From positions 3,648,001-3,712,000 of the forward strand of contig OZ243961.1 of NCBI GenBank assembly GCA_965214605.1: a stretch of DNA of 64,000 nt. The letters run 5' to 3'. The translations under genes were made by a program, and so were the position numbers. Below, piece by piece: positions 36,160 to 46,985 of this stretch. Numbering within the stretch: position 1 is the first letter of the stretch; every line of letters begins with the position of its first letter. The notes under the pieces were generated by a model. The model was given only the letters and a program-made list of their open reading frames with translations, did no database searches and was not told the DNA's origin. This stretch comes from an uncultured Candidatus Binatia bacterium. GTDB taxonomy: Bacteria; Desulfobacterota; Binatia; Bin18.

Positions 36160-36912
36160 ATGTCAGGCCACTCTAAATGGAGCACGATCAAACACAAAAA
36201 GGCGGTCAAGGATGCGCGCCGGGGTAAGCTCTTTAACAAACTCATTAAGGACTTAAGCATTGCGGCTCGCATCGGCGGCAGTGACGCCTCCGCCAACCCG
36301 CGCTTGCGCACGGCCCTGGCCGCGGCTAGGGCTGCCAGTATGCCGAACGACACAATTGAGCGGGCGATCAAAAAAGGCGCCGGCGAACTTGAAGGCGTGA
36401 GCTATGAGGAGGTTGTCTATGAGGGCCACGGCCCGGGTGGAGTAGCAATCATGCTGCAGGTCCTGACCGATAACAAGAACCGGACGGTTGCCGAGATTCG
36501 TCATTCTCTCACCAAGTATGGCGGCAGCCTAGGGACCTCAAATTCGGTCGCCTGGATGTTTGATAAAAAAGGCATTATTGCAGTTGAAGCTGAGCAGGTT
36601 GACGAAGACCAGCTGATGGAAATCGTGCTGGAGGCCGGAGCTGAAGACGTGAGCGGCGGCGAGGGCAGCTTTGAGGTAGTGACGAGCCCTGAGGATTTTA
36701 GTGCCGTGCACGCCGCCCTTGAGCAGGCCGGCTTGGCCATGCAGTCGGCTGAGGTAACGCTCGTCCCTCAGAGCACGGTCAGCCTCTCCGGCAAAGAGGC
36801 CGAACAGGTGTATAAACTGCTCGATGTGTTGCAGGAACACGACGATATCCAGAGTGTAGCCGCCAACTGCGAATTCTCTGAAGAGGATTTTGAGCGCTTG
36901 AGCGCAGCCTAA
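36160..36912 (+). CDS. yebC: YebC/PmpR family protein
   Basis: MSGHSKWSTIKHKK, NPRLR, YEGHGPGG, TDNKNRT. Confidence 0.96.
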   Translation: MSGHSKWSTIKHKKAVKDARRGKLFNKLIKDLSIAARIGGSDASANPRLRTALAAARAASMPNDTIERAIKKGAGELEGVSYEEVVYEGHGPGGVAIMLQVLTDNKNRTVAEIRHSLTKYGGSLGTSNSVAWMFDKKGIIAVEAEQVDEDQLMEIVLEAGAEDVSGGEGSFEVVTSPEDFSAVHAALEQAGLAMQSAEVTLVPQSTVSLSGKEAEQVYKLLDVLQEHDDIQSVAANCEFSEEDFERLSAA

Positions 36913-37009: not shown

Positions 37010-37642
37010 GTGCGACGCACGGAAGAAATAGAGCGGGTGCTTGGAGTAGACCCTGGAACGTTGCGGACCGGTTGGGGCATTGTTGACCGCCATCGACAAC
37101 TCACTTTTTGTGCCGGAGGCGTTGTCTCAACCGCTGGCTTCTCATCTCTACCAGAACGGCTGCGGGTCGTGTATGCAGGAATCGTCGAGGTAATTGAGCA
37201 GTGGACTCCCCACACTCTGAGTTTGGAAAAAGCGTTTGTGGCCCATAATGTGCAAAGCGCCTTTCGGCTTGGAGAAGCCAGGGGCGTCATCCTGCTCGCT
37301 GCGGCTCAGGCCGGGCTGCAAATCTCCGAGTATAACCCGACCGAAATTAAAACGGCCGTAGTCGGCTATGGCCGTGCGGATAAGACGCAGGTACAGAAAG
37401 CCGTGTTTTCTCTCTTAGGCAGTGAGACATCGGCCTTGCCAACTAGCCAGGACGCGACAGATGCCCTAGCCGCGGCGGTGTGTCACTGTCATACCTCGCC
37501 GCTGGCGGATCAGATTCAGACCCAGCTGGCCGCGGCGACGGGCCGTCGGGGTAAACGACGTCTGCGCTCGTGGCGTCAAGTTTCTGCCGATAGTCTCGAT
37601 CCTAAGCTGTTGGTCAGGGAGTGGGGAAGAGGCCGGAACTGA
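37010..37642 (+). CDS. ruvC: Holliday junction resolvase RuvC
   Basis: LGVDPG, LGEARG, VGYGRADKTQV, DATDALA. Confidence 0.95.
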   Translation: MRRTEEIERVLGVDPGTLRTGWGIVDRHRQLTFCAGGVVSTAGFSSLPERLRVVYAGIVEVIEQWTPHTLSLEKAFVAHNVQSAFRLGEARGVILLAAAQAGLQISEYNPTEIKTAVVGYGRADKTQVQKAVFSLLGSETSALPTSQDATDALAAAVCHCHTSPLADQIQTQLAAATGRRGKRRLRSWRQVSADSLDPKLLVREWGRGRN

Positions 37643-37664
37643 GCAGCGGGGATCGGGGCGGACA

Positions 37665-38255
37665 ATGATTGCGCATCTGAGCGGAGTACTCGAAGACAAA
37701 GCCCCGGATCAACTGATTGTCGATGTCGGTGGGGTGGGGTACCTAGTGTTCGTTTCGCTCCAAACTTTCTATCGTCTGCCTGAGTCGGGGCAGCGGATCC
37801 GTCTACATATCCATACCCATGTGCGTGAAGACGCCTTGCAGCTCTTTGGCTTCCTCGACGAGCAGGAAAAGGCCGACTTCGTGTTACTCAAAGGGGTCAG
37901 CGGAATTGGCCCCCGGCTGGCGGTCAACATCTTGTCCGGTATCCCGGTTGAGGAGCTAGAAGACGCCCTGCGGGCTGGGGATGTGACCCGGCTGCTGGCT
38001 ATCCCCGGGGTTGGGCGGAAAATGGCTGAGCGTCTGGTGGTTGAGCTGCGTGAAAAGGTCGGGACCTCTCCCGGAAGCGACGCCGTGGCTATCCCGGACG
38101 CCGAGCCGGCGGTTTCTGCGGACGCGGTCTCGGCTCTTATCAATCTGGGCTATCGTCAGGCCCAGGCCGAAAAAGCGGTCCAGCACGCACTCCGCGATGG
38201 GCGGTCCACACTGACCGGTATTATTCAGGAATCACTACGGAGTCTGAGCGGGTGA
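37665..38255 (+). CDS. ruvA: Holliday junction branch migration protein RuvA
   Basis: [31 protein letters not shown]. Confidence 0.96.
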
Positions 38256-39334
38256 GTAAGCCGAAAGAATCCTCCAGAGCCTCTGTCCTTGATCTGAACG
38301 CGCCGCTCGACGCTGTCGAGGATACAGCCACCGGCGAGAGTGGCGGCGAAGCGCGGCTAGAGGGCTCGCTGCGCCCCCGCAGCCTGGACGACTATATCGG
38401 TCAGGAGAGTACCAAACAGAATCTGCATATCGCTATCCAAGCCGCCAAACAGCGAGACGATGTGCTTGACCACCTACTGTTCTACGGCCCTCCAGGGCTG
38501 GGCAAGACCTCGCTGGCCCATATTATCGCCCGGGAAATGGGGGTGGATATTCGGGCCACGACCGGGCCGGTCATTGAGCGGCCCGGTGACCTAGCGGCCA
38601 TCTTGACCAACCTGGAAGACGGCGATGTGTTGTTTATTGATGAAATTCACCGTCTCAACCGAGTGGTGGAAGAATTTTTGTATCCAGCCATGGAAGATTT
38701 TCAGCTGGACCTAGTGGTCGGCCAGGGCCCCTCGGCCCGCACCGTCAAGCTCTCGCTCAAACACTTCACCCTGGTGGGTGCGACCACCCGCTCGGGCCTG
38801 CTGACCTCGCCTCTGCGCGACCGCTTTGGCTCGACCTTTCGCCTGGACTTTTACCGGGCGGCCGAACTCGAACAGATCGTTCGCCGCTCGGCTTCCATTC
38901 TAAATATGACGATTGACTCCGACGGCGTGACTGAGATTGCCCGCCGCTCGCGCGGCACGCCGCGCATCGCCAATCGTTTGCTGCGGCGGGTGCGCGACTT
39001 CGCCCAGGTCAAGGCCGACTCGGTGGTCAGCCGGGAGGTGGCCTGGGATGCGCTGCAGCTGCTAGAAGTGGACGAGGTCGGCTTTGACAAAATGGACCGA
39101 GCCGTCCTATTGACGATTATTGATAAATTCCAGGGTGGCCCGGTCGGAATCGAAACCATCGCCGCAGCCATTGGCGAAGAGAAAAACACCATCGAAGACG
39201 TGTATGAGCCGTATCTGATCCAGGAGGGCTATCTACAGCGTACTTCCCGCGGGCGGCTAGCAACTCTGAAAGCCTACACCCATTTTGGCCGAACCAGCAG
39301 TGCGGACGGCTCGGGTCGGGGTCATCTGTTCTAA
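38252..39334 (+). CDS. ruvB: Holliday junction branch migration helicase RuvB
   Basis: [37 protein letters not shown]. Confidence 0.97.
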
Positions 39335-39364: not shown

Positions 39365-41677
39365 ATGGACACAGGCCCGCCGTCCGCCGCTCCGTCCCAG
39401 AAATCGCAGCATGCCAAACGCCGGCGAGTCCGGGAAGGCGGGCTGATTGTACTCGCCGGCCTCGCCGTTTTCCTGTTCGTCGTCTCTCAGGGATCGGTGC
39501 CCCAGCTCGTCAACCACAGCTTGGTCAGTAATATCGTCTTTGTTCTACTGATCAACCTCAATATCATTCTGCTCGTCCTCGTCGTTTTTCTGCTCGGCCG
39601 CCACGTGATCAAGCTCTTTTATGAGCGTCAGCAGAAGATACCGGGCGCGCATTTACGCTTTCGGCTGGTCCTGGCCTTTGTGGCGATTTCTCTGCTGCCT
39701 GCCTGCCTGCTGTTTTTGATCGGGATTGGTTTTGTTAATCAGTCTATTAACAACTGGTTTTCCGAAAAGATCGAAACCCCGCTGAGCCAAGCGGTCGACG
39801 TCGTCAATGCCTTCCACGATCACTTGACTGACGATGCGTTATTTCATGCTCAGAGGCTGGCCACCGAGGTGGTGTCCGAAGGGTTGCACGATGGGCAAAG
39901 CCAGGCGCTGGGGGACTTGGTCGAGCGCACCTCTCGGCGCTTTGAGCTGGGACGAATTTTGATCTTTGGTCCTACCCGGCACCTCTTGGCGAGCGCCTCG
40001 GAACCGGACCACGCCATTGGCGAGAACAACAAAAGGGACACCAAGCTGCTCGACCAGGTGTTCCAGAATACGGCCATTCCTCAGACCTACTCGGTGGGCC
40101 AGACCGAGGTCGTGCGCGGAGGGGCACCTATCCTGGACCGAGATGAGGTGATTGGAGCGGTCGTTGTCGAGTACTCGATGCCGCCTCACGTCGCCTGGCA
40201 GGAAATCCAGGTGGCGAAGGCCTCCCGGGAGTATCAGCAGCTTAGAATTCTCAAGCAGCCGATCAAGAACAATTATTTGATCACCATGTTTCTGGTGACA
40301 CTAGTGGCAGTCTTTTCCGCGATTTGGCTGGGTTTCTTTTTGTCCAAAAAGATCACCATCCCGCTCCAACAGCTGGCCGCGGCAACTCGTGAGGTAGCCC
40401 AGGGCCACTGGAGCCATCGGCTTGAGGGCGAGGGCGAGGATGAGGTCGGAACCCTGGTGGCCGCCTTTAACCGGATGACAACCGACTTACAGCAGAGCCA
40501 TCAAGAGCTGGAAGCCCGGCGGCGCTATATGGAAATCTTGCTCGCCAATATGAACGCCGGGGTCGTATCTTTAGATCGGACCGGTATGGTCTCGACGCTG
40601 AATCGGGCCGCCGAGCAGCTGCTGGGGGTGGCCGCCGAGGGGGTAGTTGAGCGGGACTACCACAACGTGTTTGGGTCGGCCGAGTTTGCTGAACTGCGGC
40701 GGATGATCGGGAACTTGCTGACCGAGTCACTCAGCGAGCCAAGCGCTGGAGACGAGGGGAGGCCCGAGAGCCAGGGGCAACTGCGCCTGCTGCGTGACGG
40801 CCAAGCCCTGACCCTATTAGTAACGACCGCGCCTCTGACTGATGAGCGCGGAGAAGTGTTAGGCGGGGTGTGCTTTTTTGAGGATGTGACCCAGATCATC
40901 CGGGCCGAACGTATGGAAGCCTGGCGTGAAGTGGCGTGCCGGATTGCTCACGAAATCAAAAATCCGCTGACCCCAATTCAGCTTGCCGCCCAGCGCTTGC
41001 ACCGGCGGTTTGCGCCGCAGTTGTCCGATTCCCAAGGCGTGTTCGAAGAATGTGTCCAGAGCATCGCCCATGAGGTTGATACGATTAAACGGCTGGTCAA
41101 CGAGTTTTCGACCTTTGCCCGTTTACCGACCGCTGAGTACCAGCCGGAGGATCTGAACACGCTGATCCAAGAGGTGATTATCATCTTTTCCGAGGCGCAT
41201 CGAGATCTGGATTTCATCTTGTCCTACGACCCTGATCTGCCGCTGCTTGATCTCGACCGAGAGGGTATCAAACGGGCTGTACGCAATCTGCTGGATAATG
41301 CCGTGGCTGCCTGCCAGACCTCGGTCAACGGCAGGGCCAATGGCCCGTTGGGTCAGATTGGAGTGGCGACCCGCTTTTTCCGTTCGGTCGGCATCGTTCG
41401 ACTTGAGGTGACCGATACTGGCTGCGGTATTCCGGCCCAGATCAAGGATCGCTTGTTCGAGCCCTATTTTTCGACCAAAAAAGAAGGAACGGGCCTAGGG
41501 TTGGCGATTGTGGCTACGGTGGTGGCTGATCATCAGGCTTTTCTGCGCGTGCGGGATAATACCCCTCACGGAAGTCGCTTTATTATTGAGCTGCCGGTCC
41601 GACGGCGGGGGCAGCTGAGCACGGATCTGGTCAGGGCGACGCCACCGCAGCCAACCGCAAACGGTCGATATAGCTAG
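39365..41677 (+). CDS. ntrY: NtrY-type membrane sensor histidine kinase (TM-HAMP-PAS-HisKA-HATPase)
   Basis: HAMP DEVGTLVAAFNRM, PAS, H-box AWREVACRIAHEIKNPLTPIQL, NLLDNA, DTGCGI, FEPYFSTK, GTGLGL. Confidence 0.88.
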   Translation: MDTGPPSAAPSQKSQHAKRRRVREGGLIVLAGLAVFLFVVSQGSVPQLVNHSLVSNIVFVLLINLNIILLVLVVFLLGRHVIKLFYERQQKIPGAHLRFRLVLAFVAISLLPACLLFLIGIGFVNQSINNWFSEKIETPLSQAVDVVNAFHDHLTDDALFHAQRLATEVVSEGLHDGQSQALGDLVERTSRRFELGRILIFGPTRHLLASASEPDHAIGENNKRDTKLLDQVFQNTAIPQTYSVGQTEVVRGGAPILDRDEVIGAVVVEYSMPPHVAWQEIQVAKASREYQQLRILKQPIKNNYLITMFLVTLVAVFSAIWLGFFLSKKITIPLQQLAAATREVAQGHWSHRLEGEGEDEVGTLVAAFNRMTTDLQQSHQELEARRRYMEILLANMNAGVVSLDRTGMVSTLNRAAEQLLGVAAEGVVERDYHNVFGSAEFAELRRMIGNLLTESLSEPSAGDEGRPESQGQLRLLRDGQALTLLVTTAPLTDERGEVLGGVCFFEDVTQIIRAERMEAWREVACRIAHEIKNPLTPIQLAAQRLHRRFAPQLSDSQGVFEECVQSIAHEVDTIKRLVNEFSTFARLPTAEYQPEDLNTLIQEVIIIFSEAHRDLDFILSYDPDLPLLDLDREGIKRAVRNLLDNAVAACQTSVNGRANGPLGQIGVATRFFRSVGIVRLEVTDTGCGIPAQIKDRLFEPYFSTKKEGTGLGLAIVATVVADHQAFLRVRDNTPHGSRFIIELPVRRRGQLSTDLVRATPPQPTANGRYS

Positions 41678-41687
41678 TGAGGACGGT

Positions 41688-43007
41688 ATGAACGATACCA
41701 TTCTAGTGGTTGATGATGAGGAAAAGATTCGGACGACCTTACGCGGGATTCTGAGCGATGAGGGATTCCAGGTCTTGGACACCGGAGACAGTGCCCAAGT
41801 CCTCGATCTAATCCGCACCCGCCAACCCCGGCTGGTCATTCTTGATATTTGGATGCCGCAGCTCGACGGCATTAGCCTGCTCGAACAACTCAAAGCCCAG
41901 CAACCGAAACTACCGGTCATTGTCATTTCCGGCCACGGCACAATTGAGACAGCGGTCCGGGCGACCAAGCTGGGAGCGACTGATTTTATTGAGAAACCGT
42001 TTTCGCTCGAAGCCCTCCTCCGCTCGGTGTATCGGGCGATTGGACGCGAGGCGGCTGACCACACCGCCCAAGGAGGACATCGCGCTTCGCCGCCCAACCG
42101 TCAGGCTGTAGTGGGGCCGCGCGAGTGTGTCCAGGCTCAGACAATTGGACGCAGCGTTGTGCTGCGTGGTCAGGGATTGCACTCTGGCGTGCGCACTGGG
42201 GTGATCCTGCAACCGCTGCCACCCGGCAGTGGAATCGTGTTCGGATCCCTATCGACCGGTGTGGTAATTCCGGCCTCAGTCGACTATATCAGCTCGACCG
42301 GCTATGCGACGAGTTTGTACCGGGACGGCGCTATGGCCCGTACGATTGAACATCTCATGGCGGCCCTGCACGGCTACGGTATCACTAATCTGATGATCAA
42401 GATGCAGGATGAAATCCCGATTCTGGACGGATCGGCGCGCGAGTTTTGTCAGGTACTTGACGAAGCCGGGATTGTCGAGCAGGACGAGACAGTTGAGCTC
42501 ATTACGGTCGATCGGCCGTATCAGGTGGGCGACGGAGGGGGTGACAAGGAGCTGCGCATTGAGCCGGCCGATCATTTTTCGGTCCGCTATATTCTGGACT
42601 ATCCCCCACCGGTCGGTCGTCAGGAACACTGCTATGTGCATCGGGGAGCCGAGAGCTTTGGCGCCGAAATTGCCCCGGCCCGAACCTTTGGCTTTTTGAA
42701 AGAGGTCCAAGCGCTGGAGCAGATGGGCCTGGCCAACGGTGGACGGCTTGACAACTGTATTTTGATAGGCGATCAGGGCGTGATTAATCCACCTCTGCGT
42801 TTTGATGACGAACTCGCCCGCCACAAAGTCTTGGATCTGGTCGGTGATCTGTACCTGTTAGGGCGACCGTTACGGGGGAAAGTGACGGCTAATCGGACCG
42901 GTCACAGCGATAATGTTGCCCTAGTCCGGGCCTTACGGCTGGGATTGCAAGCCAAAAAGCTCGGGGGAGAGCATTTGTCTATGAGAGGTGTGGAAAAACA
43001 GCTATGA
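41688..43007 (+). CDS. lpxC: Receiver (NtrX-like) domain fused to UDP-3-O-acyl-GlcNAc deacetylase LpxC
   Basis: REC: VVDDE, LDIWMP, ISGHG, FIEKP; LpxC: GLHSG, TIEHLMAAL, PILDGSA, ARTFGF, RHKVLDLVGDL, TGH; one uninterrupted ORF. Confidence 0.92.
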   Translation: MNDTILVVDDEEKIRTTLRGILSDEGFQVLDTGDSAQVLDLIRTRQPRLVILDIWMPQLDGISLLEQLKAQQPKLPVIVISGHGTIETAVRATKLGATDFIEKPFSLEALLRSVYRAIGREAADHTAQGGHRASPPNRQAVVGPRECVQAQTIGRSVVLRGQGLHSGVRTGVILQPLPPGSGIVFGSLSTGVVIPASVDYISSTGYATSLYRDGAMARTIEHLMAALHGYGITNLMIKMQDEIPILDGSAREFCQVLDEAGIVEQDETVELITVDRPYQVGDGGGDKELRIEPADHFSVRYILDYPPPVGRQEHCYVHRGAESFGAEIAPARTFGFLKEVQALEQMGLANGGRLDNCILIGDQGVINPPLRFDDELARHKVLDLVGDLYLLGRPLRGKVTANRTGHSDNVALVRALRLGLQAKKLGGEHLSMRGVEKQL

Positions 43008-43014
43008 TGAAAGA

Positions 43015-44001
43015 ATGATTAAACGCTGGCTCTGCCTGAGTCTCCTTTTTGCTGTTGGACTCGTGGCTGACGGCCTTGGCCAGAGCCCTCCGTCCTCCGT
43101 CCAACTCGCCCAACTCAAACAGGTTCGTGACCGTCTGCTCTCGGTTATCCCTAATCCCCCCCAGTTTGAACTCCTGGTGTTCGACAACCCATCCATCAAC
43201 GCTGGGGCCACCTCTGGTCGGCTCCTTTTCTCGACCGGCATGCTCAACTTTGTGCGCTCAGACGACGAACTCGCCGTGATTGTCGGCCACGAGATCGCCC
43301 ATCTCACCCAGGGACATGTGGTCCAGGGGAGGCTCAGGTCCATCCTGCTCAGCTTGGCCAGCCAGCTAGTCGATAACGTCTATCCGGGCGTCGGGGTGCT
43401 GACCGGTCAGATCGGTCGGCTGTTTCTTAACCACTATGACCAGCGCCAGGAGCACGAGGCCGATGCGGTCGGCCTGCGCTATGCGTTTGACGCCGGCTAT
43501 GATCCCTGGGCCGGGGCTGAGGTCATGCGTCGTCTGGCCCGTGAGGTGCCGAAAACGGCCACCGCCAACTTTTTTTCGTCCCATCCGTCCTCTCCAGAAC
43601 GGGCCAACACACTCCAACGGCTCGCCGCCCGGCTGACCGCCCAAGCTTCCGCTTCCCCGCCCACACAAGCTCCCGGCCCGGCCGCTGATTTGGCGGCCTT
43701 GTCACGGTCGCCAAATCAGCAGGTAAGGTCTCGGTTCGGACGTGACAAGGAGTCTTGCCTTCGGGCGCGATCCTACTTCCAGCGCGCCTCAGACACCCAC
43801 GCCTTAGACCAAAAAGTGCAACTCTACCACCGGGGCTTACGCCTGTGTCCGCAGAGCCCACGGGCACGTTTTGAGTTGGCCGAGGTGTATGCCCGTCTGG
43901 GACAGCTCAAGCCCGCGGCCGATGAGCTCCGGGCGGTGTTGAGTTACGATCCGTTTTATCCTGGCGTCCGTCAGCGCTTGCGCAGCCTGCAGGAGCGCTG
44001 A
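43015..44001 (+). CDS. Exported M48 family metalloprotease with C-terminal TPR (BepA-like)
   Basis: Signal peptide, INA, ELAVIVGHEIAH, EHEAD, AGYDP, SSHP, then TPR-like helices. Confidence 0.88.
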   Translation: MIKRWLCLSLLFAVGLVADGLGQSPPSSVQLAQLKQVRDRLLSVIPNPPQFELLVFDNPSINAGATSGRLLFSTGMLNFVRSDDELAVIVGHEIAHLTQGHVVQGRLRSILLSLASQLVDNVYPGVGVLTGQIGRLFLNHYDQRQEHEADAVGLRYAFDAGYDPWAGAEVMRRLAREVPKTATANFFSSHPSSPERANTLQRLAARLTAQASASPPTQAPGPAADLAALSRSPNQQVRSRFGRDKESCLRARSYFQRASDTHALDQKVQLYHRGLRLCPQSPRARFELAEVYARLGQLKPAADELRAVLSYDPFYPGVRQRLRSLQER

Positions 44002-44685: not shown

Positions 44686-45168
44686 ATGCGATCTCTCGTC
44701 AGATGGTGGGGCAGTGCAGTTCTGATTATGTTGGTAGTCGGCACGCCTGTACGAGTCGCCGCGTGTTTTGCCGATTTCTTCCAGCAGCAGAAAGTCGGTC
44801 AGGAAATGACGCTGACCGGGGAGTTTTACCGTTTTCCCCAGACGCGTCGATTTTTTCGGCGCGATTATAAGACCCGCCGAGTTGACTATTTTACCTTTTT
44901 TAGCGTAGCAGTCGTGCCGACCACGATTATCGGCAACGGGGCCATGTCGCAGGAGGCGAGGCCAATCGATTCCTTGCTGTTGCTGTTCCCCGCTGAGGAA
45001 CTCGTCCGAGACCTGCCACAGACGGGTGATAAGATTTGGTTCACCGGAACACTACTCGGCTATCAATACGGCTCAAGCGGCATTACCGAAGCCTTCGGTA
45101 TCGGCGGTATGCCCTATATTTTGCTCAAGCGCTTCTCTGACCAAGCCCCGGACTCTCTCAACCGCTAA
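44686..45168 (+). CDS. Exported hypothetical protein
   Basis: ATG after AGGA, signal-peptide-like N-terminus; possible OB-fold-like GDKIWFTGTL segment. Confidence 0.65.
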   Translation: MRSLVRWWGSAVLIMLVVGTPVRVAACFADFFQQQKVGQEMTLTGEFYRFPQTRRFFRRDYKTRRVDYFTFFSVAVVPTTIIGNGAMSQEARPIDSLLLLFPAEELVRDLPQTGDKIWFTGTLLGYQYGSSGITEAFGIGGMPYILLKRFSDQAPDSLNR

Positions 45169-45212
45169 TCGGCCTTGCCAAGACCCAAAAAAATCTGCAC
45201 GGTCATAGGATT

Positions 45213-46985
45213 ATGACTTGGGATGCGTGGTTTACTCTGGCGGTCGTGGTCGTCGGTATTGGGGCCTTGATTCGGGACTTGTTGGCCCCGGATCTGATCT
45301 TTGTGGGCATGCTGGCCGTCTTGCTAGTGAGCGGTATTCTCTCGCCGCAGGAGGCGTTTGCCGGTTTTTCAAACCCGGAAATTTTGGCCATCGGCGCCTT
45401 ATTTGTGGTTGCCGGGGCGCTCCGCCATACTGGCGCCCTGAGCTTTGTAGCGACTCGCCTGTTTGGCCAGATTACCAGCGACCGACGTGCCCTGTTGCGC
45501 ATGATGCTGCCCACCGCCGGGATCTCCGCCTTTCTAAACAACACCCCGATTGTGGCAATGTTCACGCCGGTTGTGTTTGACTGGGCGCGCCGCCACCACG
45601 TGTCGCCGTCGCGCTTTCTCATTCCGCTGTCCTACGCGACGATTTTGGGCGGGGCGTGTACCCTGATCGGGACGTCTACCAACATGGTGGTCAACGGCTT
45701 GATGGTCAGCGCCGGCCAGCCGGGCATGTCCTTCTTTGAGCTAAGCGCGGTCGGGGTTCCATGTGCTCTGGTCGGCGTGGGTTTTCTGGTCATTGCTGGG
45801 CGTGTTCTGCTGCCCGATCGCAAGGAGCTGCTGGAGAGTCTCGGCGAAACGAGTCGTGAGTATCTGGTTGAACTCGAGGTGACGGCTGAGTGCCCTTTGG
45901 TCGGCCGACCGATCGAAGAGGCTGGGCTGCGCCACCTGCCCGGCCTGTTTCTGGTCCGTATCGAACGGCTTGAGGAAACCGTCTCCCCGGTCGGGCCGCA
46001 AGAACGTATCCGGGTCGCTGACCGGTTAGTCTTCACCGGAGTCGTGTCGACGATTGTCGATCTGCAAAAGATCCGGGGACTGGTACCAGCCGGGGATCAC
46101 CGCGAAGGAGCCGAACGCGTCGGCGAGGGCAATAATCTGAGCGAAGCGGTTGTTTCTGAGGAGTCGCCGCTCAACGGGGTGACAATTCGGGATGCCAATT
46201 TCCGCACCCGCTACGGTGCGGCCGTGGTTGCCGTGCATCGTGGGGGACGCCGGCTGAGTGGAAAAATCGGCGATATTTTGCTCCGCGCGGGAGACACCTT
46301 GTTACTCGAAGCCTCGGCCGGTTTTGCCCGTACCTACCGGAATTCGGCTGACTTTTATCTGGTGTCTGAGGTCGATAATAGCGCGCCGCCACGTTACGAT
46401 AAAGCTATTCCGGCCCTGCTCGCCCTGCTCGCCCTCATCTCTACTGTGGCCATGGGAGTGCTGCCGATGATAACGGCGGCGCTGCTGGCCGCGTTTATCG
46501 TTATCGCGTGCGGCTGTCTGTCCGTGGGGGAGACCCGCAGTGCTGTCGATGTCTCGGTGTTGATTCTGATTGCCGCCGCATTCGGGGTCGGCAAAGCGCT
46601 GGATAAGACAGGGGTGGCTGGATTTTTGGCTTTATTCTTGATCGACCTCGGCGATGGGCTGGGGCTAGTGGGAGTGCTGGCGTTGGTCTATCTGGTCACC
46701 CTACTCTTCACCGAATGTATCTCCCACGCCCCGGCAGCGGTCCTGATGTTCCCCATTGCGCTTGAGACCGCCCAGCAGTTTGGAGTCGATATGCGGCCGT
46801 TTGCGATTACGATTGCGATCGCCGCCTCGGCCGCGTTTGCCTCGCCGCTCAGCTATCAGACCCATCTCATGGTCTATGGACCAGGGGGCTATCGCTTTGC
46901 CGATTTTCTGAAAATCGGTATTCCCCTTGACCTGTTAATCTTCACCGTAGCCATGATTTGTATTCCGTGGGCCTGGCCATTCTGA
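45213..46985 (+). CDS. SLC13-family permease with two TrkA-C domains
   Basis: SAFLNNTP, LIGTSTN, central TrkA-C repeats, SPLSYQTHLMVYGPGGYRFADF. Confidence 0.92.
   Translation: MTWDAWFTLAVVVVGIGALIRDLLAPDLIFVGMLAVLLVSGILSPQEAFAGFSNPEILAIGALFVVAGALRHTGALSFVATRLFGQITSDRRALLRMMLPTAGISAFLNNTPIVAMFTPVVFDWARRHHVSPSRFLIPLSYATILGGACTLIGTSTNMVVNGLMVSAGQPGMSFFELSAVGVPCALVGVGFLVIAGRVLLPDRKELLESLGETSREYLVELEVTAECPLVGRPIEEAGLRHLPGLFLVRIERLEETVSPVGPQERIRVADRLVFTGVVSTIVDLQKIRGLVPAGDHREGAERVGEGNNLSEAVVSEESPLNGVTIRDANFRTRYGAAVVAVHRGGRRLSGKIGDILLRAGDTLLLEASAGFARTYRNSADFYLVSEVDNSAPPRYDKAIPALLALLALISTVAMGVLPMITAALLAAFIVIACGCLSVGETRSAVDVSVLILIAAAFGVGKALDKTGVAGFLALFLIDLGDGLGLVGVLALVYLVTLLFTECISHAPAAVLMFPIALETAQQFGVDMRPFAITIAIAASAAFASPLSYQTHLMVYGPGGYRFADFLKIGIPLDLLIFTVAMICIPWAWPF

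Follow-up and report, generated by a model that had tools for sequence, protein, structure and literature searches.

An NtrX-type receiver fused to the sole LpxC of a Binatia bacterium: a candidate two-component system with a lipid A enzyme as its response regulator

The stretch analysed here (the window) comprises 64,000 nucleotides (nt) from an uncultured Candidatus Binatia bacterium (GenBank assembly GCA_965214605.1, contig OZ243961.1, positions 3,648,001 to 3,712,000 of the forward strand). It contains the gene of an NtrY-like histidine kinase followed by a single open reading frame (ORF) in which an NtrX-type receiver domain is joined to LpxC, the committing enzyme and control point of lipopolysaccharide (LPS) and lipid A synthesis and a long-standing antibiotic target. 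The fusion is real, deeply conserved and apparently undescribed. The best reading of it, to which a probability of about 0.7 is given from sequence evidence, is that the kinase sets the phosphorylation of Asp53 in the receiver and would in this way adjust LpxC post-translationally. The elements of the kinase and fusion genes are the following (positions in the window; aa, amino acids):

39365..41677, + strand: NtrY-like histidine kinase, ORF of 770 aa
Within the kinase, + strand (Pfam): HAMP, aa 326-377; PAS, aa 391-508; HisKA, aa 521-587; HATPase_c, aa 631-746
40949..40951, + strand: codon of His529 of the kinase, H-box AHEIKNPLT, with Asn533 at H+4
41678..41687, + strand: gap of 10 nt between kinase (stop TAG 41675-41677) and fusion (ATG 41688)
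41688..43007, + strand: receiver-LpxC fusion gene, single ORF of 439 aa plus stop
41700..42029 (aa 5-114), + strand: receiver (REC), NtrX-type, Pfam Response_reg, E 2.6e-31
41844-41846, + strand: codon of the phospho-acceptor D53, motif LDIWMP
42042..42128 (aa 119-147), + strand: interdomain linker, rich in Pro, Gly and Ala, predicted disordered
42129..42938 (aa 148-417), + strand: LpxC domain, UDP-3-O-acyl-GlcNAc deacetylase, Pfam E 9.7e-84
42939..43004 (aa 418-439), + strand: C-terminal tail, non-conserved, overlapped by the start of the next gene

An earlier reading made from the letters alone (the sequence-only reading) had described a 439-aa frame starting 10 bp past the kinase, formed by an NtrX-type receiver with all its phosphorylation residues, a linker of about 30 aa and a complete LpxC with its zinc and catalytic residues, and the domain searches, structure model and alignments recovered every one of these elements in the one ORF at 41688-43007. 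The receiver scores 108.5 bits with PF00072 (cut-off 30.2) and contains D9, D10, D53 (LDIWMP), S81 (ISGHG) and K103 (EKP). Its top NCBIfam model is NtrX, at 139 bits and far under the curated equivalog cut-off of 600, and its closest solved structures are the Brucella NtrX entries 4d6x (E 6.3e-31) and 5m7n. The full NtrX layout is not present: Pfam finds neither the central AAA+ domain nor the C-terminal Fis-type helix-turn-helix (HTH) in the 439-aa protein. The LpxC half matches PF03331 over aa 151-416 (281.5 bits, cut-off 27) and passes the NCBIfam lpxC equivalog TIGR00325 (244 bits, cut-off 187.25). Its residues E221-H222, T333-F334 (RTFGF), H379-K380-D383-D387 (HKVLDLVGD) and H406 (TGH) are intact and the motifs are identical, residue by residue, to those of the solved Pseudomonas aeruginosa LpxC (E 1.4e-50). 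From the LpxC literature we take H222, H379 and D383 to be the zinc ligands, and E221 and H406 to be catalytic. Since the family scores exceed their cut-offs and the phospho-site and catalytic residues are kept, both halves look functional.

The source genome (4.37 Mb, 99.99% complete) contains one LpxC match only, which is the fusion gene; this answers whether a second lpxC is present. LpxB was identified together with two matches of LpxA-type genes, and a lipid A pathway accompanying LpxC is thus present; with a sole LpxC in a genome of this completeness, the enzyme is needed. The two LpxA-type matches (PF13720, the LpxA C-terminal domain) are located outside the window at C1:1893239-1893484 and C1:1332665-1332904, in frames of 283 and 269 aa, so that two predicted LpxA-type acyltransferases stand beside a single LpxC.

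The fusion could in principle be an artefact of assembly or gene calling, with lpxC and an ntrX-like receiver gene being separate in reality, an explanation of next to no probability. The assembly is of metagenome type and split matches were identified in some relatives (for instance G410, G478 and G494), but these split cases break neighbouring genes too, the frame in the window is uninterrupted, and a single match over both domains recurs in independent genomes: 138 of 151 from Binatia and 105 of 124 from a second phylum. The receiver-linker-LpxC junction is also bridged, with no differences, by contigs assembled in other studies (X7 record 10 over 42015-42206; X5 records 4 and 5 over 41837-42541); among the sequencing runs compared, X1 may be the source sample itself. 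The recurrence in independent assemblies and the bridging contigs exclude the artefact. The 120 best homologues in a collection of 5.8 billion proteins share 65-100% identity with the fusion, and all of them contain both Pfam domains.

The Binatia sample comprises 151 genomes, of which 147 gave a match; the 138 with a single match over both domains include one unpublished genome, G474. Nine others have partial or split matches, most of them situated at the end of a contig or belonging to an assembly that has indel errors, and no match was found in the remaining four at E 1e-30. In one split case (locus L131 of G410) ruvB and the kinase have broken frames as well, and the split fusion, kinase and ruvB frames look like assembly indel errors, not gene decay. 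Three apparent triple fusions of kinase, receiver and LpxC, in L130 (G110), L128 (G143) and L113 (G076), were rejected as spurious long frames: in this G+C-rich DNA the fusion frame stays open for 650-1070 codons 5' of the true start, crossing the kinase in another frame. Gene order was compared in 20 Binatia loci with 6-kb flanks, one from each of the 19 sampled families plus one extra. In all 20 the gene immediately 5' of the fusion, in the same orientation, is a kinase orthologue, as it is in five of five further Binatia-like loci from metagenome-assembled genomes (MAGs); ruvB precedes the kinase in 16 of the 20.

By these domain matches the fusion is near-universal both within Binatia and within a second phylum, and it is found in other lineages besides, so that it is no rarity of the source genome; the receiver-LpxC architecture looked for in relatives was thus found well beyond them. 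Receiver-LpxC proteins of about 450 aa (43-48% identity) are encoded at four loci of MAGs that carry the label Bdellovibrionota or Bdellovibrionales, where the gene is flanked by a ferredoxin gene and purA, and by murC, murB and ftsA; no kinase was identified near the fusion in these four. The second phylum is the GTDB phylum of one of these MAGs. There, 120 of the 124 genomes were matched, 105 of them by a single match over both domains; G541 has a single spanning match at 34% identity, and in the rest of the matched genomes a contig end splits the match. G538 and G539, like the source genome, have no LpxC other than the fusion. Ten non-Binatia genomes of the source phylum, picked for LpxC scores in the same lower band and not at random, comprise two with long forms that also contain AAA+ (G045 and G081), six with short forms, one unfused (G043) and one without a call (G030), for which no LpxC part was reported with a long-form query at E 1e-40. 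Further long and intermediate forms belong to MAGs labelled Nitrospinota and 'Deltaproteobacteria', one of them called NtrX by JGI, and a 427-aa form is located within a 2.68-Mb genome labelled Spirochaetota.

These longer proteins came up when the LpxC domain alone was searched against 1.84 billion representatives, where they form most of its closest relatives. Six of 650-736 aa contain a receiver, a sigma54-type AAA+ domain, an AAA lid and LpxC. The top NCBIfam model of the long forms is NtrX, for instance in P0124, which reaches 335 bits and covers positions 3-450 of the 452 in the model. In an alignment of the 17 long forms to a relative's canonical NtrX-like protein, GAFTGA is missing from all and the Walker B Glu from nearly all, while Walker A persists in most and many retain a segment corresponding to the Fis-type HTH immediately before LpxC; Pfam HTH_8 was over its cut-off in five of the ten tested. 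As the long forms carry a receiver, AAA+, an NtrX match and sometimes an HTH, the sequences trace the family to a complete NtrX joined end to end with LpxC, from which AAA+ and HTH were then lost repeatedly, and the 439-aa protein is the most reduced member of this larger fused family. The sequence-only reading had the enzyme replacing the transcriptional output of NtrX; the intermediate forms bear out the exchange but not as a simple replacement, with LpxC apparently added to a complete NtrX and AAA+ and HTH lost later. Loss of AAA+ has a precedent in beta-proteobacterial NtrX (PMC13001219; this and the other papers cited are represented by parts of their text).

A FastTree phylogeny of 172 LpxC domains places all the fused forms in one clade of 85 rows (SH-like support 99), comprising 57 receiver-LpxC, 17 receiver-AAA+-LpxC, four N-truncated AAA+-LpxC, three with unassigned N-termini and four short calls labelled as stand-alone; 86 stand-alone LpxCs fall outside. 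An IQ-TREE analysis (LG+C20, quick search, 91 rows) likewise gives one clade (SH-aLRT 96) with all 58 fused rows and the same four short calls. Two of these four are truncated, on contigs of about 900 bp, and the other two may be true reversions. The fused LpxC domains, as far as their sequences tell, share one origin. Branching order within the fused clade differs between the two trees, so that topology does not give the direction of change. Each of five short forms has a long form as its close sister (pairs P0141/P0142, P0136/P0132, P0140/P0150, L155/L159 and P0145/P0125), which indicates that the loss of AAA+ recurs; together with the whole NtrX, including the HTH, held by long forms, these pairs favour the direction from long to short. 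The linker measures 26-116 aa in 57 short-form relatives and 260-349 aa in the long forms. The tree of receiver domains (112 rows, 122 columns, FastTree) neither supports nor rejects a single origin: the smallest clade with all fused receivers has support 12 and also holds 33 of 33 NtrX receivers and one of five sigma54-type regulators of the source genome itself.

This ancestry bears on a quite unlikely alternative, that the receiver is a relic or a tether, either anchoring LpxC at the membrane kinase or acting as a sink for phosphate, with LpxC itself constitutive. The protein is after all the remnant of an NtrX fusion, GAFTGA is gone and the Walker B Glu nearly gone in the 17 long forms, and no confident contact between receiver and enzyme is predicted. 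The acceptor pocket, however, is constrained. Among the 74 full-coverage fused rows with a detected receiver, D9, D10, K103 and S/T81 are each conserved in 73 and D53 in 72, close to the enzyme half, where E221, H222, F334, H379, K380, D383, D387 and H406 are conserved in all 74 and T333 in 73; the pattern points to strong constraint on the phospho-acceptor pocket. The receiver was moreover kept in every lineage that lost AAA+ and HTH, and the kinase has no other neighbouring regulator in the fused lineages.

The kinase presents the Pfam domains NtrY_N, HAMP, PAS, HisKA and HATPase_c and is NtrY-like, with NtrY_N exactly at its cut-off here and at 34.6-41.7 bits in the orthologous kinases of relatives. 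A hydropathy scan places hydrophobic segments at about aa 21-129 and aa 302-329, and the stretch between them, about aa 130-301, is putatively periplasmic. His529 is the predicted phospho-accepting histidine. PlrS, a kinase of the NtrY family, requires the Asn at H+4, the position of Asn533 here, for its phosphatase activity (PMC13001219). A Shine-Dalgarno-like GAGGA was read at 41679-41683, inside the 10-nt gap and 4 nt ahead of the fusion ATG.

The pairing of this kinase with the fusion is suggested by what stands in the place of NtrX in each type of genome. No protein of the source genome is over the curated NtrX cut-off of 600, the highest score, 378 bits, belonging to a generic sigma54 activator. 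In five of five genomes with a fused LpxC but no adjacent kinase, the kinase has a single strong full-length orthologue, and at all eight kinase loci examined in fused lineages with the fusion elsewhere there is no receiver within 1.5 kb. Within the second phylum, the NtrY-like kinase is located away from the fusion in G595, G554 and G539, and in the first two it comes right after ruvB, as in Binatia, without a neighbouring regulator. Five genomes were sampled because their LpxC stands alone, and in all five an NtrX-like receiver-AAA+ gene comes after the kinase. Since unfused kinases adjoin NtrX-like genes and fused-lineage kinases outside Binatia have none, the fusion occupies the NtrX slot. 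Furthermore, lpxC is directly upstream of the kinase in three of the five (G210, G394 and G370) and in G043, forming a contiguous lpxC-ntrY-ntrX cluster, and the occurrence of such clusters links lpxC to an NtrYX-like system even where it is unfused. The regulator after the kinase in G043 has NtrX as its best model (506 bits, cut-off 600). A tandem duplication of an lpxC-ntrY-ntrX cluster followed by a deletion could have yielded an ntrX::lpxC fusion.

Several details of these loci were recorded on the side. Unfused clusters of lpxC, NtrY-like and NtrX-like genes on one strand were identified in L171 (7007-11491, - strand), L178, L179 and L180, and lpxC of G043 shares 14 nt with the kinase gene. 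The linkage of ruvB and kinase is found also in another phylum (G595 and G554) and in another family (G068), with the fusion elsewhere (loci L151, L152 and L177). In G595 a DUF4390 gene (L151, 3692-4273, - strand) lies between ruvB and the NtrY-like kinase; no DUF4390 gene was found between the two in the window. DUF4390 is the family of Bordetella PlrP, a proposed periplasmic third component of NtrYX-type systems (PMC13001219).

The kinase and the fusion would form a two-component system in which the lipid A enzyme itself is the response regulator. The membrane kinase, with its periplasmic loop, HAMP and PAS, would autophosphorylate on His529 and pass the phosphate to, or strip it from, Asp53 of the receiver, which is tethered to the sole LpxC via a flexible linker of about 30 aa. 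The phosphorylation state of the receiver would then set the amount of LpxC activity, most likely post-translationally; possible routes are an altered contact between receiver and enzyme, a dimerisation of the receiver (CheB-type or PleD-type) or a changed stability. Envelope or redox signals could thereby tune the flux of lipid A without transcription, and the fusion would be the sole evident output of the kinase in the fused lineages. Both steps, the phosphotransfer between this kinase and this receiver and any effect of receiver phosphorylation on LpxC, are inferred from sequence. Regarding the sign of the effect, phosphorylation may lower the LpxC output, a speculation by analogy with the alpha-proteobacterial NtrYX, which lowers lpxC.

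Several points weigh against this direct phospho-control. The kinase is unlinked outside Binatia, where the partnership consequently rests on both genes being orphans, and in the MAG G538 no kinase was identified at E 1e-30; adjacency is a feature of Binatia and not of the whole family. The NtrY_N match of the kinase in the window is 23.2 bits, exactly the Pfam cut-off. The AlphaFold2 single-chain model (mean pLDDT 87.7) shows no defined receiver-enzyme contact, because its pTM is only 0.71 and its linker is disordered. LpxC is a monomeric enzyme, and a dimerisation switch is for that reason without obvious catalytic logic. Finally, for every member of the family the support comes from sequences and models. 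In the model, aa 4-117 form a (beta-alpha)5 receiver in which five strands alternate with helices and most pLDDT values exceed 90, and aa 122-141 of the linker have pLDDT below 50 between two well-folded domains. An interface prediction from alignments, receiver aa 1-122 versus LpxC aa 148-420, gave a score of 0.00, which speaks neither for nor against binding.

An unlikely variant of the same switch, with another read-out, is that the receiver governs the lifetime of LpxC and not its rate, as a phospho-switched degron for FtsH, Lon or ClpXP replacing LapB/FtsH control. The LpxC of E. coli is controlled mainly by regulated proteolysis (PMC12444477). The fused proteins end approximately at the LpxC core with a non-conserved tail, which leaves no evident C-terminal degron of the E. 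coli type: homologues cover just 95-96% of the fusion query, stopping short of the tail, and aa 428-439 have pLDDT below 50. The LapB zinc-ribbon (PF18073) had no match over the cut-off in the source genome, with a model that is unspecific and in the control matched Gram-positive genomes too. On the other side, there is no pointer in the sequence to a protease adaptor.

The preferred reading, phospho-control of LpxC by the kinase, can be compared with several known systems. The closest is NtrY/NtrX of Brucella, Rhodobacter (Cereibacter) sphaeroides and Caulobacter, with PlrS/PlrR of Bordetella. The kinase architecture is alike, with NtrY_N at its cut-off and including the H-box His and the Asn at H+4; the receiver is closest to NtrX; the order is kinase then regulator in both; and the AAA+ of NtrX, lacking GAFTGA, persists in the long relatives, in some together with the HTH. 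The known system is also tied to lpxC expression and the envelope. The fusion differs in lacking AAA+ and the DNA-binding domain, its output being an enzyme, and the locus in the window follows ruvCAB, not ntrBC or rsmB-DUF4390. Loss of NtrYX in R. sphaeroides raised lpxC mRNA 8.8-fold and increased LPS, with no NtrX site upstream of lpxC (PMC7240162), and NtrYX affects lpxC transcription in Rhodobacter and Caulobacter according to a 2025 review of lipid A regulation (PMC12444477). In Desulfovibrio vulgaris the regulator DVU2934 targets lpxC at transcription (PMC3333781). DVU2934 and the alpha-proteobacterial NtrX are likewise two-component signals ending at LpxC, but they bind DNA, NtrYX with large regulons, whereas here the regulator and the enzyme are one protein.

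Response regulators with an enzymatic output comprise CheB (methylesterase), PleD and WspR (GGDEF) and RpfG (HD-GYP). Like the fusion, these place a receiver at the N-terminus and an enzyme at the C-terminus of one polypeptide, with a flexible linker in between, and the CheB-type layout suggests by analogy that phosphorylation acts directly on the enzyme. The differences are that the output of the fusion is a biosynthetic housekeeping enzyme, the only copy of the cell, and not a signalling enzyme, and that the present model shows a disordered linker and no defined contact between receiver and enzyme. Compared with FtsH, LapB (YciM) and YejM of E. coli, where LpxC is degraded by way of a C-terminal degron and the adaptor LapB, the candidate control element here is a covalently attached phospho-receiver. 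The LpxC/FabZ protein (NF009667) is another natural LpxC fusion, in which the partner is a C-terminal enzyme of the pathway instead of an N-terminal signalling domain; the LpxC of the window scores 208.7 bits with that model, against a cut-off of 465.

A broader claim, given a little less than an even chance, is that the family is an ancient module of several phyla for direct phospho-control of LpxC, in which Asp53 would be an on/off switch replacing LapB/FtsH in the short forms and the long forms would be bifunctional, NtrX regulator and LpxC in one.

The other genes around the kinase and the fusion are:

36160-36912, + strand: yebC, upstream of ruvCAB
37010-39334, + strand: ruvC, ruvA and ruvB, between yebC and the kinase
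42988-44001, + strand: M48 peptidase with C-terminal TPR repeats, its first 20 nt shared with the 3' end of the fusion gene

Small gaps separate yebC, ruvC, ruvA and ruvB from each other and from the kinase. The M48/TPR gene is BepA-like at only 62 bits (cut-off 570). It was considered as a part of the module and rejected: of the Binatia loci, only that of the closest relative (L002) has it adjoining the fusion; in L130 it lies 2 kb away, and beside the fusion of the other 18 it was not found. The tight coupling of the two genes is specific to the source lineage. Downstream of the protease gene, at 44686-46985 on the + strand, are ORFs of 160 aa and of 590 aa, the latter a membrane protein, and the closest relative keeps both beside the protease gene (81% and 90% identity). 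Between 35500 and 45300 no excess of promoter-like sites (3, versus 3.1 in shuffled sequence) or terminator-like sites (9 versus 8.5) was identified, and the scan gives no operon boundary; a look for RNA records covering the stretch brought up none.

The sequence-only reading knew of no characterised example, and a search of the literature likewise turned up no published receiver-LpxC fusion; subscription journals and supplements lay beyond that search, so that a prior mention is possible. By term counts in the part of the 2025 review available, the words 'receiver' and 'fusion' are absent, and the modes of LpxC control that this part describes are proteolysis, in enterobacteria and relatives, and transcription (PMC12444477). 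If the preferred reading is true, a direct two-component signal would be a third mode beside these, acting on the sole LpxC of hundreds of species, and a biosynthetic housekeeping enzyme would join the outputs of response regulators. The series from receiver-AAA+-HTH-LpxC to receiver-LpxC records a stepwise shedding of domains. The fusion is moreover a 'Rosetta stone' for the link of NtrYX with lpxC and the envelope in alpha-proteobacteria, a link that the unfused lpxC-ntrY-ntrX clusters back independently.

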